A DNA stretch of 28,622 bases from Candidatus Nanohalobium sp. (GCA_042217615.1 JBDGSI010000040.1:1-28622); one strand, 5' to 3'; counted from the first letter of the stretch, positions 1 to 28,573 are shown. Numbers and translations are program-made. The notes: generated by a model from the letters alone, not told the origin.

Positions 1-58
1 TCCAGGAAAACGCATTCAACCAGTAAATAAAAAAGGCCTCCAGTTTTTCTTTTTCCCT

Positions 59-925
59 GTGATTGAACTTGGTTTAATGCTGGCGGCTTTCCTGGCGTTT
101 ATGAAAGGGTTTCAAAGCGTCTATGAAAGGAAAGGCGCGGTAAGTACGGATGAGTTTGTAACTGCGTGGGCTTCAAGAGCCTTCGGAGTGCCGGTGCTTC
201 TGGCAGCAGTCCTGATACAAGACCTTCCTCCGCTTTCCACAGAATTCTTTATAGCGGTGATTCCTCAAAGCCTGGCGATCACTGCTGCATCTGTAATAAT
301 AGCGAAGGCCTTTAAGGAGTCGGATGCGTCGATAGTTACGCCGATGTTTGCTCTTTCACCTGTTCTCGTACTTATAACTTCTTTTGTGGTTCTCGGCGAG
401 GTTCCAAGCCTTTCAGGGGTTATAGGTGTAGGCCTTGTAGCGGCAGGTGCTTATTCCATGAAGATTGAAGGGTCGCAGCATGTTTTGCAGCCTTTCAGAA
501 GGCTTTGGAGTGAGAAAGGGGTTCAACTGATTCTAACTGTGATAATGCTTTACTCTGTGACTTCTGTGGTGGATAAAATAGGGGTTAAAAGTTCAAGCCC
601 TGCTGTATGGTCGTTCTCGGTCGTAACCCTTTCCTCGATATTTCTCTTCCCGGTAATGACCAGGAAATCCGGAGAATGGAGGAAGAAGCTGAGAACTGAC
701 TGGAAACCTCTTACATTCCTAGGAGGGATAGGAGGAGCCGCAGCAATAGTACAGATGACAGCGATCAAGCTTACCCTTGTCACCTACGTAATATCAATCA
801 AAAGACTCAGCATCCCGCTCACAGTAATCCTCAGCTACCTGCTGCTTGGAGAAAAAGAAAGCATCAAAGGAAGGCTCCTCGGCGCAGCCCTGATGACTGC
901 AGGAGCACTCATGATAATCCTATAA
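59..925 (+). CDS. EamA/DMT family transporter
   Basis: 288 aa, about 10 hydrophobic helices in two repeats. DMT-type motifs ASIVTPMFALSPVLVLITSFVVLGE and SIPLTVILSYLLLGEK. GTG start. Confidence 0.9.
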   Translation: MIELGLMLAAFLAFMKGFQSVYERKGAVSTDEFVTAWASRAFGVPVLLAAVLIQDLPPLSTEFFIAVIPQSLAITAASVIIAKAFKESDASIVTPMFALSPVLVLITSFVVLGEVPSLSGVIGVGLVAAGAYSMKIEGSQHVLQPFRRLWSEKGVQLILTVIMLYSVTSVVDKIGVKSSSPAVWSFSVVTLSSIFLFPVMTRKSGEWRKKLRTDWKPLTFLGGIGGAAAIVQMTAIKLTLVTYVISIKRLSIPLTVILSYLLLGEKESIKGRLLGAALMTAGALMIIL

Positions 926-1028
926 AAAACCTCTGGAAAGGTCTTGATCCTTCAGTAACAAAAGAACTTAAGAGCATACAGGTTCCAATTAATTACTGGG
1001 AAGATGAAAAAAGGCCTTTCCACAACCC

Positions 1029-1046
1029 AAAAAATATACTTAAACA
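1029..1046 (+). promoter_or_regulatory. Putative BRE/TATA promoter of the surface-protein gene
   Basis: AAAAAATATACTTAAAC lies ~25-35 nt upstream of the probable start region (1069-1079). Confidence 0.5.
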
Positions 1047-1135
1047 TTCAAGCTCCAAACACCAAGCAGTGATACCCTATCTCACACAATAGACTTTACA
1101 GAACAGGTCTCCTTCTACTTACTCTAACAATAACA

Positions 1136-3217
1136 ATGGGAACAGTCTCCGCCTTTGAGTTCGCATCTTCTACACCTGAAAACGGTACAGGGCTCTCGAC
1201 TCCGGTCACAATCAACGTGACAGGAACCGGAGTAACTCAGGGAGAGATGTCTGCAGTCTGGGGGCCTAAAGGAGACTTTAGCAGCGGTGGAGGTACTAGT
1301 AATATACAGGTTCGCGGAGGATCTGCATGGTTCCAGTGGAATGCTTCACGTAATAACAACAATAGATGGGTTGTCAGGGTTTCAAACGGAACACATTCTA
1401 TCCAGAATGTTTACAAGCTGGATAACAAGGCTCCCAAGATTAAAGGCCTTGATCTACCTGACAGGTTGAACAGTGATTTTGGACCTGTCAAGTTTAATGT
1501 TGAGGAGCAGTATGGCAGTATTGATTTTGTTGAGGTCCGTGTTAAGGACAGTGATGGAGAGGTTGTGGATAGTAAGGAGTTCTGCAGCGATTCCGAAGAT
1601 AAAGATAGCTGCAGTGTTTCCTATGAGCTTCCAACAGGTGGTATGAGTAGCGGTAATGAGTATGAGTTAGAGGTTGAGAGAAATGATTCGTTTGGTGAAA
1701 AAGGTCGTCGTCCTTACAGCGAGGAGTTTACTTATGATAACAAGTATAAAGGAGATGAGAATCCTTCTGTTAAGCCCGGGCCTCAGGTCTTCAGAGTTGA
1801 TGACGGTAGTGAAGAGATCAGGATAGGTGTGACTTTGAATGGAAAAAGTGAGGGGTCGGAGATCTCTGTAGTGTGTAAGTATCAAGGCGGGAAAATTGGT
1901 ACTTCTTCGTCCAAGTACCTCAGCAGCGATGAAGAAGAGACCTTTGACTGTACGATGGTGCCGGAGGATTACGGTAATATTGGAATGGATTTCAAAGCAG
2001 TTCTAAAGGATGAAGCCGGGAACACAGAGCCTGTTGAAGTAGGAACATACTACTTTGACTTCTACCCGCCTAAACTGGAGAACTTGAGCGCGGTTGTAGG
2101 CATATTCAACAGCGACTTCCAGCTATCCTATGACGGGTACGATCCAGGAGAGACAGAGATAGGTAAAATACACTACCAGCTAAACGACAAAACTTTAGAC
2201 CTGGATAACGGATACAATTCAACGGACGCAGATGGAGATTTCAAAGTAAATACTGAAGGCCTTTCGAAAGGCGCCCACACTGTTTATGCCTGGGCGGTTG
2301 ACAAGGCAGGACGTGTAAGCAGCAGGAAAAAGTTCACCTTTGATTTCAGGCCTTCTGCAACTCCTAAAGCAGCTATAAGCACTGGTAACAAGTTGAGTAC
2401 TGTTGCGGGAGAGGATGTTATTGTTAAATCCTCTGTCAAGAATACAGGAAGGCTTTATATCAGCAGCATGGATCTAAGTCTTGTTTCCAGTATTTCAAAC
2501 CAGTCCAGGTCTTTGAAAGGTTTGAAGCCAGGTGAAAATGTTTCTGAGTACTTCTCTATTGATACGGAGGAGAAAGATCTTGGAGTACACAAGTTGGCGT
2601 TGAAGACTCAAAGCCCTGATGCAAGTGAAACAGTTAAACTTGTTGTAAAGGCTAACAAAGATCAAAAAAGTTCTATCAAGGATAAATACGAACGGTTTTC
2701 GGAAAGGTACAGGGATTTGAAAGAGAACGTAACCCGGTTGAATCAAAGCGGTTTATCCCAGGAAAGAAGGGAAAGACTTGGTTCCAATACCTCAGAGTTC
2801 TTCCAGAGAATGGAGGCAGCTGTCAAGGCCTTTGAAAAAGGGCGTTTCTACAGAGTTGATTCAATTCTTGAAAATATTCAACCGCTTTATGAGAAGGCCT
2901 CAGAAAGTTACAGGCAGGTTAAGAAGGAGCATGAAGCAGCTGAGTTCAACCGTTTGATCGGTTTGTTCCTGCTTGTTGGAATAGGTTTAACCGGTTCAGG
3001 TGTAGCCTATGTGGCCTGGTTCAGCGAAGAGTACTACATCGATATAGAGGCCTTGAAGGAGATTGACTGGCTTGAAAAAGGTATAGAGTTTGTGGAGGAG
3101 AAAGTAGGTCAGTACGAGTTAAGCTTGGAGCCTTTGGAAGGCCTTCTTGACGGCCTGGGAGAGGCTGTTGAGGAGGAAGAGGAGGAGTTGGAGCAAGGTT
3201 TCCAGGGTTTCAGCTAA
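1136..3217 (+). CDS. Membrane-anchored surface (glyco)protein: Ig-like repeats, CARDB/NEW3-like domain, coiled coil, C-terminal TM helix, acidic tail; true start probably upstream (~1079)
   Basis: Beta-rich repeats with D-x-x-(A/P)-P and D-x-A-G-(N/R) motifs. VKNTGRLY...LKPGENVS is CARDB-like. TM segment LIGLFLLVGIGLTGSGVAYVAWF; many N-x-S/T sequons. The upstream in-frame sequence completes a signal peptide. Confidence 0.75.
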   Translation: MGTVSAFEFASSTPENGTGLSTPVTINVTGTGVTQGEMSAVWGPKGDFSSGGGTSNIQVRGGSAWFQWNASRNNNNRWVVRVSNGTHSIQNVYKLDNKAPKIKGLDLPDRLNSDFGPVKFNVEEQYGSIDFVEVRVKDSDGEVVDSKEFCSDSEDKDSCSVSYELPTGGMSSGNEYELEVERNDSFGEKGRRPYSEEFTYDNKYKGDENPSVKPGPQVFRVDDGSEEIRIGVTLNGKSEGSEISVVCKYQGGKIGTSSSKYLSSDEEETFDCTMVPEDYGNIGMDFKAVLKDEAGNTEPVEVGTYYFDFYPPKLENLSAVVGIFNSDFQLSYDGYDPGETEIGKIHYQLNDKTLDLDNGYNSTDADGDFKVNTEGLSKGAHTVYAWAVDKAGRVSSRKKFTFDFRPSATPKAAISTGNKLSTVAGEDVIVKSSVKNTGRLYISSMDLSLVSSISNQSRSLKGLKPGENVSEYFSIDTEEKDLGVHKLALKTQSPDASETVKLVVKANKDQKSSIKDKYERFSERYRDLKENVTRLNQSGLSQERRERLGSNTSEFFQRMEAAVKAFEKGRFYRVDSILENIQPLYEKASESYRQVKKEHEAAEFNRLIGLFLLVGIGLTGSGVAYVAWFSEEYYIDIEALKEIDWLEKGIEFVEEKVGQYELSLEPLEGLLDGLGEAVEEEEEELEQGFQGFS

Positions 3218-27540: not shown

Positions 27541-27582
27541 GTTTCAAATACTGGTTAAATCTTAACTTTACCAGAAGGATAC

Positions 27583-27999
27583 ATGGCTCAGGAAGAATGG
27601 GTTGACCTACTTGAAGCAATCTACGAAGAATCAGAGTTCTGGGAGATGGAACGATCCAAAATAAAAGAACTAGAAGCCAAAACAGGATATCCTGAAGAAG
27701 AGATAGAAACCCTGATGGAAAACCTTCAGAAACAAGGCCTTATCAAGAGAGAAATGGAGGAAATAATACTTACAGAAAGAGGATTCGAATTCATCAGCGA
27801 TAAGAAGACTCACAAAGAGCAGATGCTTACACAACGCCTCCTGCTAGTGTTTGTAACGGCTCTCTCACTTGCAACACTTGCAAACACAGTAATCAAGATA
27901 ACACAGCAGGGAAACATGGTCTTCAACATTATCTACAGCATAGTCTTTGCAATACTGTTTATAGTCCTTGGAATGATAGCCAAACAAAATCTGGAGTAG
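27583..27999 (+). CDS. Winged-helix-like N-terminal domain plus two C-terminal TM helices
   Basis: LMENLQKQGLIKRE...IILTERGFEF is a wHTH-type wing motif. TM segments LLLVFVTALSLATLA and VFNIIYSIVFAILFIVLGMIA. Confidence 0.7.
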   Translation: MAQEEWVDLLEAIYEESEFWEMERSKIKELEAKTGYPEEEIETLMENLQKQGLIKREMEEIILTERGFEFISDKKTHKEQMLTQRLLLVFVTALSLATLANTVIKITQQGNMVFNIIYSIVFAILFIVLGMIAKQNLE

Positions 28000-28014
28000 A
28001 GAAGTTTACAGAGG

Positions 28015-28483
28015 TCAGGAGTTAATTAAGCTCTTTAGCTTCCTGTATCTCTCCTCATATTTTTCCTCTCTATATCCGGTCTCCGGCCACAGATCCATAC
28101 CTTCTTCACTGCTTCTAGGAACAAGATGAAAATGGAAATGGCTTATTGACTGCTGCGCTGCTTTCCCGCTTGCATTGAGAAGATTTACCCCCGTCATAAC
28201 ATTCTTCCTTCTCCAACTGTACAGATATATCCTTAACAGTTTCTACCACCTCAACCAGTTCCTCCTTCGGAATATCAAAAATGCTTTCATAATGATCCTT
28301 AGGTATAACCAGTAGATGGCCTTCTGACAGCACACCCTGCTTCAAAGGTGCAAAAGCCATAACACTCTCATCCTCATAAACTACCTGAGCATCTCTGCTT
28401 TCAACTATCTTGCAAAAAACACATTCTCCCTTAAACCGGTACCACAGACTCTTCCCAGCTTTTTTCACCTGTGAAAAATCCAT
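28015..28483 (-). pseudogene. hit: HIT family nucleotide hydrolase split by a 1-nt frameshift (or sequencing error)
   Basis: The 5' ORF has CVFCKIV...GHLLVIPKDH and the 3' ORF has QSISHFHFHLVPR. Removing one C from the C5 run at 28188-28192 joins them (EECYDG-VNLLNA) into 155 aa. Confidence 0.85.
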
Positions 28484-28573
28484 AAACAAGGTTTGATACC
28501 TTCCTATAAGTTATTTCCCAAAAACCTTCTATAGGCCTGAGAAGCACCGTCCTCACAGGCGAGAGTAAAAAAA

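Follow-up and report, generated by a model that had tools for sequence, protein, structure and literature searches.

What maintains the six-letter palindrome AGGCCT at high density in the DNA of Candidatus Nanohalobium sp.? The question is raised by a stretch of 28,622 nucleotides (GCA_042217615.1, JBDGSI010000040.1:1-28622), here called the window, which is contig C35 of an assembly of 875 kb in 89 contigs with 44.7% GC (genome G000). The original prediction, made from the sequence of the window, had proposed that an active DNA-level system keeps the motif hyper-abundant, and had likened it to the cyanobacterial highly iterated palindrome (HIP) HIP1 and to DNA uptake sequences (DUS). We counted AGGCCT in the window, in the assembly and in all 70 species genomes of the order, and compared G000 with two complete genomes, those of the carrier relative G003 and of the non-enriched sister G021. 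The counts show that AGGCCT is a true HIP in this genome.

AGGCCT is a highly iterated palindrome

The window holds 88 exact copies of AGGCCT (34..28538, no strand assigned), the first at position 34 and the last at 28533-28538, with a mean spacing of ~325 bp. About 87 copies against about 5 expected had been predicted, at a GC content judged to be ~44%. The computed GC content is 45.1% and base composition predicts 5.6 copies. Dinucleotide-preserving shuffles of the window gave 8.8 ± 3.1 copies, the largest value being 16. Seventy-four of the 88 copies are in genes (10/30/34 in the three codon frames), 13 are in the 2.7 kb of spacers and one straddles a gene end. Shuffling of synonymous codons within the window genes yielded 10.0 ± 3.0 copies compared to the 74 observed, and 73 of the 102 positions at which the encoded amino acids are compatible with the motif carry it. 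The statement that most GGCC sites are flanked by A and T also held, since 88 of the 140 GGCC tetramers in the window (63%) and 2,691 of the 4,201 in the assembly (64%) are part of AGGCCT.

Assembly-wide, the 2,691 copies correspond to one per 325 bp and to an observed/expected ratio (O/E) of 16.1 relative to base composition. AGGCCT ranks first among all hexamers, and the palindromic hexamer that ranks second by enrichment has an O/E of 2.5. GGCC with other flanks is scarce in G000 (O/E 0.13-0.7), likewise in the non-enriched sister. The motif was detected on 88 of the 89 contigs, with a median of 3.3 per kb on contigs of at least 5 kb. Eight contigs (C73, C88, C66, C40, C41, C5, C54 and C76; ~56 kb in total) are AGGCCT-poor, with 0-0.7 copies per kb. 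They were either acquired recently as islands (glycosyltransferases are encoded on C66) or mis-binned into the assembly.

Genome-wide, genes were called as crude long open reading frames (ORFs), which cover 83% of G000. Coding DNA had 2.97 AGGCCT per kb and noncoding DNA 3.56, and the genic copies were distributed over frames 0, 1 and 2 as 320, 772 and 1,071. When synonymous codons were shuffled within genes, keeping protein and codon usage, 352 ± 17 copies were obtained compared to 2,163 observed. The enrichment thus survives codon-preserving shuffles in the window and in the genome alike. The motif is present in all frames and in spacers and is in 6-fold excess over synonymous shuffles; as originally argued, codon or amino-acid usage is insufficient as its cause. 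A maximal-order Markov model gave an O/E of only 1.11 for AGGCCT in G000, where 84% of AGGCC pentamers continue with T. This ratio is low because AGGCC and GGCCT owe their own abundance to the motif; neither a model of that order nor a shuffle that preserves dicodons is therefore a valid null.

A uniform, lineage-specific pressure on DNA

In coding DNA, the motif is compatible with Arg-Pro in frame 0, with Lys/Glu/Gln-Ala-(Phe/Leu/Ser/Tyr/Cys/Trp) in frame 1 and with (codon ending in A)-Gly-Leu in frame 2. AGGCCT occupies 65%, 62% and 63% of such positions in frames 0, 1 and 2 of G000, and 83%, 72% and 71% in G003, compared to 5%, 3% and 3% in G021. With favourable flanks, the occupancy in G003 reaches 0.83-0.93. 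Occupancy was independent of protein conservation, at 0.65-0.73 in all four quartiles. These results show that a uniform, genome-wide directional pressure at the DNA level has filled about two thirds of the protein-tolerated positions with AGGCCT, and that this pressure acts with the same strength whatever the codon frame, on spacers as well as genes, and irrespective of how well a gene is conserved. The ribosomal RNA genes are without enrichment, with 3 copies in 4.5 kb of G003 and the same number in G021.

The pressure is strong enough for amino-acid replacement. Motif-compatible peptides per 1,000 amino acids are 1.5-2 times commoner in G000 and G003 than in G021. Across 316 orthologue triplets, the compatible positions confined to a single genome numbered 618 in G000, 695 in G003 and 256 in G021, and 200 positions were common to G000 and G003 only, compared to 108 for G000 and G021 only and 81 for G003 and G021 only. 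On a tree of AtpA and AtpB, G021 groups as the sister of the genus of G000 with support of 100/99. The best-conserved proteins have fewer compatible positions (10.9 vs 15-16 per 1,000 amino acids). The DNA motif is driving convergent amino-acid change in the proteins of carriers.

The enrichment also extends beyond the window and the assembly. Fifteen species genomes besides G000 carry it, complete genomes among them, and the 54 other genomes of the order are at background, with G046 counted as intermediate. Carrier genomes hold 1,481-4,489 copies each. All three genomes of genus g1 and all three of genus g18 are carriers, as are four of five in genus g21, plus the intermediate G046 (762 copies in 0.8 Mb), and two of six in genus g2 (G003 and G023, versus G060-G063). 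The complete genome G003 has 4,131 copies, one per 253 bp, with an O/E of 19.6, and the complete genome G021 has 97, with an O/E of 0.6 for AGGCCT and 0.33 for GGCC. The single contig of G019 (1,046,959 bp) is that of a carrier with 2,478 copies; G015 (948,351 bp) is a non-carrier, and the published methylome presumed to be its own (GDGcHC only) is therefore silent on AGGCCT. On the AtpA and AtpB tree, carriers fall in one clade of 11 genomes and are interleaved with the non-carriers G021, G020, G014 and G005, and at least three to four gains or losses are therefore needed. The pressure has been turned on in certain nanohaloarchaeal lineages, and it is off in the relatives closest to these. 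The proposal of an actively maintained, lineage-specific and HIP1-like enrichment at the DNA level is borne out by these data.

Motif-poor islands were observed in the otherwise saturated G003 at 669976-692221, 839875-843443 and 1031384-1041412. Recently acquired islands are without AGGCCT enrichment, and the density of the motif seems to date acquired DNA.

Other palindromes were examined in relatives. G021 avoids GGCC strongly and GGGCCC still more (O/E 0.05), and it encodes a C5 DNA methyltransferase (G021:840533-841486) within a block of lineage-specific genes. Together, the avoidance and the methyltransferase look like classical restriction avoidance of the same core. GGCC is still fewer in 20-kb samples of G017 (9 copies) and G018 (5 copies). 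AGATCT was the top palindromic hexamer in small samples of G007 (4.5 kb; 8 vs 1.3 expected) and G017 (20 kb; 23 vs 6.0). AGGWCCT was considered as a spaced variant of the motif, and hence a second iterated palindrome, in the ~1-Mb genome of G014 and was rejected as mostly a codon and amino-acid effect. Its 1,162 copies there are 4-10 times those of most relatives (only G031 and G035 are closer), and in 25 kb of G014 it reached 1.7 times the synonymous-shuffle expectation, with 82% of copies in one frame (Glu/Lys/Gln-Asp/Val-Leu).

Within the window, a gene of 693 amino acids with no Pfam match (1136..3217, + strand) carries seven copies in all three codon frames, and the frames originally assigned to three of its sites were correct (1444, xxA-GGC-CTx; 2826, xAG-GCC-Txx; 2348, AGG-CCT). 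Copies had also been placed inside the conserved atp genes and in intergenic DNA. The gene atpA, for the catalytic subunit of the A-type ATP synthase (20083..21846, - strand), indeed has five, at 20241, 20870, 21241, 21553 and 21587, and atpB (18615..20018, - strand) has two, at 18999 and 19376, in addition to the 13 copies in spacers. The orthologues of non-enriched relatives have 0-2 copies in atpA and 0-1 in atpB. A close pair, 11 bp apart, is located at 18591..18607 (no strand assigned) in the spacer between the gene at 17934-18575 and atpB. A nucleotidyltransferase gene of the NTP_transf_2 family (15886..17181, + strand; 431 amino acids), likely a CCA-adding enzyme, has no copy, and the longest AGGCCT-free stretch of the window is 15803-17180. 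The gene lacks the motif because its protein offers no motif-compatible peptide (0 vs ~6 expected), which is within chance given ~800 genes. In G013, the AtpA match (G013:C1:174892-178194) is split into residues 10-255 and 242-587 inside one open frame of 1,109 amino acids, suggesting a putative intein in the catalytic subunit of the ATP synthase.

Shape of the pressure and search for its agent

At compatible positions without the motif, the spectrum of Hamming distances to AGGCCT was 0.47/0.37/0.16 in G000, 0.56/0.31/0.13 in G003 and 0.41/0.41/0.18 in G021. The single-mismatch neighbours of AGGCCT were not depleted in G000, where the O/E values of AGGCTT and AGGTCT were 1.95 and 1.86, compared to 1.55 and 1.73 in G021. 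With a near-baseline spectrum and undepleted neighbours, what is raised is therefore the motif state as a whole, rather than the motif at the expense of particular neighbours. Taken as the natural logarithm of the occupancy odds ratio versus baseline, the scaled advantage per site is ~3-4.

The motif is spread nearly uniformly along the chromosome (19.7 ± 5.5 copies per 5 kb), and beyond 100 bp its spacing is near random, with a coefficient of variation of 0.95-1.11. Pairs less than 20 bp apart make up 2% of intervals compared to 6.5% expected. The occupancy of compatible positions drops to 0.20-0.27 when a second AGGCCT lies within 12 bp, and is back at its plateau by ~24 bp from the neighbouring site in G003 and by ~72-100 bp in G000. 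The flanks of the motif carry information at positions -1/+1 and weakly at -3/-4, and none beyond ±4, and conserved genes are unchanged in length; the copies were accordingly judged to be neither insertion footprints nor members of a repeat family. The preferred letter at -1 in spacers is A in G000 (66% of sites) and G in G003 (43% of sites); it is C in G022 and A in G001 and G019. The half-matching hexamers AGGCCC and GGGCCT are 3-fold enriched in G003, compared to 0.12-0.25 in G021. Variants in the outer letters (1G or 6C) account for 46% of the distance-1 compatible positions in G003 versus 0.6% in G021; this bias is weak in G000 (15% vs 5% in G021). The probability of a site in G003 was 0.70-0.97 given a site in G000 and 0.57-0.89 without one, a modest excess in two near-saturated genomes whose divergence is too great for the conservation test of Xu et al. 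Collectively, the flank preferences, the half-match enrichment and the short-range interference resemble what a DNA-binding protein would leave through its graded specificity and its footprint.

Profile searches of gene content revealed no DNA methyltransferase family common to the carriers among PF00145, PF01555, PF02384, PF02086 and PF07669. PF00145 had no match in G000, G001, G002, G003, G019 or G023. The complete genome of the carrier G001 (98% complete, O/E 16) had no match to PF00145, PF01555 or PF02086, and its only other methyltransferase match is an Eco57I-type (type IIG) methyltransferase-endonuclease gene (G001:C1:490951-491842) that appears interrupted, with matches in two frames and a TAA inside the match. 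In G003, a type I hsdM gene (683321-684913) without any AGGCCT lies in the island at 669976-692221, and a type IIG-like gene of 1,239 amino acids (477073-480789) has 1.35 AGGCCT per kb compared to 3.95 genome-wide. The location of both genes in motif-poor DNA suggests that they were acquired later. G019 has a type I hsdM-like gene and an N6/N4 methyltransferase match, read as a type III Mod, and G022 has one C5 methyltransferase. The enzymes of G003, G019 and G022 differ from one another, and none is common. Weak methyltransferase matches of ~20 bits were dismissed as a small housekeeping NPPY methyltransferase, which the non-enriched G021 has as well. No Vsr (PF03852) was found in these searches. 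No known DNA methyltransferase seems to be involved, and methylation-coupled repair bias, one of the mechanisms originally offered, finds no gene support. For an uptake signal, another of them, ComEC (PF03772), the bacterial-type uptake channel, was matched in 0 of 70 genomes, with positive controls matched.

For a contrast of gene content, the ORFs of G000 were compared with the assembled G003 and G021 genomes and the candidates were then checked across relatives. Forty-nine of the 824 G000 ORFs match G003 but not G021, and 9 more match G003 far better. By Pfam content, these candidates are mostly metabolic and surface genes. In the reverse contrast, 246 G021 ORFs were missing from both carriers. 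Several individual candidates were rejected. NucS (PF01939) was matched in 62 of the 70 genomes, whether or not they carry the motif. A Toprim protein, a winged helix-turn-helix protein (31-41% identity only), a 229-amino-acid protein, a ribbon-helix-helix nucleotidyltransferase and a small S-adenosylmethionine-dependent methyltransferase all occur in non-enriched g2 species; a coiled-coil protein of 419 amino acids is widespread, and a CARDB surface protein is in only four genomes. The last belongs to a cluster of large secreted or surface proteins (CARDB, NosD-like and several without family; G000:C36:1321-10089 and G003:224216-232874), which among the 70 genomes is found in G000, G003, G023 and G062 only. 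Its distribution suggests that the cluster moved between genera g1 and g2.

Candidate explanations and known systems

We tentatively favour, at somewhat less than even chances, a uniform fixation bias exerted through a putative sequence-specific DNA-binding protein that would bias repair or gene conversion in cells equipped with NucS and recombination. Such a protein would read duplex DNA with graded specificity, with AGGCCT as the core and a -1/+1 preference that differs by lineage, and would cover some 20-70 bp of DNA. The fixation bias would favour the motif allele as a whole. Its likeliest form would be sequence-biased repair or gene conversion of heteroduplexes, in archaea that rely on NucS and homologous recombination. 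We consider it less likely that thousands of sites are each selected independently at the level of the organism. A more specific version is possible but doubtful: a methylation-independent "motif writer", a protein biasing repair or gene conversion until AGGCCT saturates the genome and rewrites proteins, which would be gained and lost within genera. If true, it would represent a DNA-level drive, selfish or domesticated, for which no organism offers a described example.

Several points weigh against the favoured explanation. Absence of methylation was judged from gene content only, and m5C (5-methylcytosine) could come from an unrecognised or host-supplied enzyme. A boosted motif state with an otherwise unchanged spectrum is expected under repair bias and under per-site selection alike, and the undepleted single-mismatch neighbours in G000 count against a Vsr-like draining of particular neighbours. 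G000 is only 81% complete. The footprint is deduced from the interference between sites, part of which could be explained by avoidance of short hairpins. There is also no candidate reader gene: every candidate checked was also in non-enriched genomes or missing from enriched ones.

The closest competitor, possible but distinctly less likely than the favoured explanation, is organism-level selection for binding sites, in which an abundant protein serving nucleoid organisation, chromosome handling or self-DNA recognition would need a dense lawn of AGGCCT, with a small benefit per site. The flank preferences and short-range interference resemble a protein footprint within which a second site adds nothing, the density along the chromosome is nearly uniform, the coincidence of sites in G000 and G003 is somewhat above independence, and selection has been argued for HIP1 (Xu et al. 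2018, PMC5861425). Against this, a scaled advantage of ~3-4 would be required at each of thousands of sites, in organisms that depend on a host and whose populations are presumably small, and close relatives live without the enrichment. Occupancy is equal across frames and gene classes, the near-random spacing beyond 100 bp keeps no regular array, and no co-occurring gene was found in the contrast of gene content. Methylation-coupled mismatch repair, the model of Elhai for HIPs, would have a methyltransferase mark AGGCCT or the inner GGCC and a methyl-dependent repair activity restore or create the site; the methyltransferase would be too divergent to recognise or would be delivered by the haloarchaeal host through cytoplasmic bridges. 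Every cyanobacterial HIP is accompanied by a cognate methyltransferase (PMC4390886), exchange of methyltransferases between nanohaloarchaeon and host has been proposed (PMC11001535), the single-letter deviants of G003 are concentrated at the outer letters as for HIP1, and the patchy gain and loss is typical of restriction-modification genes. We nevertheless consider this model improbable: the complete carrier G001 has no intact methyltransferase of the searched families, the enzymes of G003, G019 and G022 are different and unshared, those of G003 lie in motif-poor DNA that suggests a later arrival, there is no Vsr, and the transition neighbours AGGCTT and AGGTCT are undepleted in G000.

A drive by DNA uptake, with preferential import and recombination of AGGCCT-rich fragments as for the DUS and uptake signal sequences (USS) of Neisseria and Haemophilus, appears less probable again, to the point of being very unlikely. 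It would account for copies in genes and spacers, for a reshaped proteome and for the lineage "dialects" at the flanks, and nanohaloarchaea are thought to take in environmental DNA for nucleotides (PMC10266531). However, a six-letter palindrome is far shorter than the oriented uptake sequences of 9-12 nt, and ComEC was not found in the 70 genomes. At about one copy per kb, DUS and USS are far below the density of 3-4 per kb and the saturation of up to 0.9 seen here, and interference at 12-70 bp is unexpected when kilobase fragments are imported. An artefact of codon usage, amino-acid composition, a dispersed repeat family or mis-assembly can be regarded as excluded. The low maximal-order Markov ratio and the AGGWCCT look-alike of G014, mostly a codon effect, speak in its favour. 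They are set against a 6-fold excess over synonymous shuffles with a z-score above 100, occurrence in all codon frames and spacers, flanks without information beyond ±4 and hence no repeat family, and a presence on 88 of the 89 contigs as well as in 15 further species genomes, some of them complete.

A full-text literature search found no publication linking AGGCCT, or any iterated palindrome, with nanohaloarchaea. The HIPs of cyanobacteria have been unexplained for some thirty years, and the leading model ties them to cognate methyltransferases. The AGGCCT case is useful here: it comes from another domain of life, it is denser than HIP1, it occurs in genomes of roughly 1 Mb with about 1,000 genes, it is on or off between species of one genus, apparently no methyltransferase is common to the carriers, and one carrier seems to be available in laboratory co-culture. 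With small genomes, a switch within genera and no shared methyltransferase, the search for the agent is therefore tractable, and the nanohaloarchaeal motif tests whether methylation is really required for HIPs. AGGCCT further shows a DNA-level force driving convergent amino-acid change, and its density serves as a sharp marker, both to bin contigs of carrier lineages and to flag DNA that they acquired recently.

Among known systems, the restriction enzyme StuI cuts AGG^CCT and so shares all six letters with the motif. Restriction sites are normally avoided where the enzyme is met; in contrast, AGGCCT is enriched 16-20-fold, and the carriers share no modification gene. DUS (Neisseria) and USS (Pasteurellaceae) likewise build up across the genome, in genes as in spacers, skew the proteome, form lineage "dialects" and are explicable by drive without a benefit per site. 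Unlike AGGCCT, they are longer, non-palindromic and oriented and have a known competence machinery, of which ComEC was not found here. In very short patch (VSP) repair (Dcm/Vsr of E. coli), and with Mig.Mth, an archaeal T/G glycosylase acting in GGCC context, repair is specific to sequence context, and a context-specific repair is likewise proposed here to push near-cognates towards the palindrome. Dcm/Vsr and Mig.Mth both depend on an m5C methyltransferase, whereas carriers have no such methyltransferase and no Vsr; furthermore, T-containing neighbours are not depleted in G000, and the enrichment that the two systems produce is far weaker.

The nearest relative is cyanobacterial HIP1 (GCGATCGC), described together with alternate HIPs (Elhai 2015, PMC4390886; Xu, Lawrence & Durand 2018, PMC5861425). 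Wherever a HIP is abundant, there is a cognate, often orphan, methyltransferase for the palindrome or its inner core, and where a HIP1 copy deviates by one letter, the first or last letter is preferentially affected (Elhai 2015, PMC4390886). HIP1 sites are conserved beyond neutral expectation and show a periodic distribution of 10-90 kb (Xu et al. 2018, PMC5861425). AGGCCT differs in being found in archaea rather than cyanobacteria, in being a 6-mer and not an 8-mer, and in its density, with one site per 250-325 bp and 62-83% of permitted positions filled. It also differs in that the hallmark of Elhai's HIPs, the cognate methyltransferase, is not recognisable in the gene content of carriers. 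The likeness to HIP1 drawn by the original prediction therefore extends to the defining statistics and stops at this hallmark. As with HIP1, the motif is a short GC-rich palindrome that is at least 15-fold over-represented (O/E 16.1 in G000 and 19.6 in G003), lies in genes in all frames and in spacers, is unexplained by codon usage, is present or absent by lineage and, clearly in G003 but weakly in G000, has single-letter deviants biased to the outer letters. Judged from these genomes, AGGCCT is apparently an archaeal, methylation-free counterpart of cyanobacterial HIP1.

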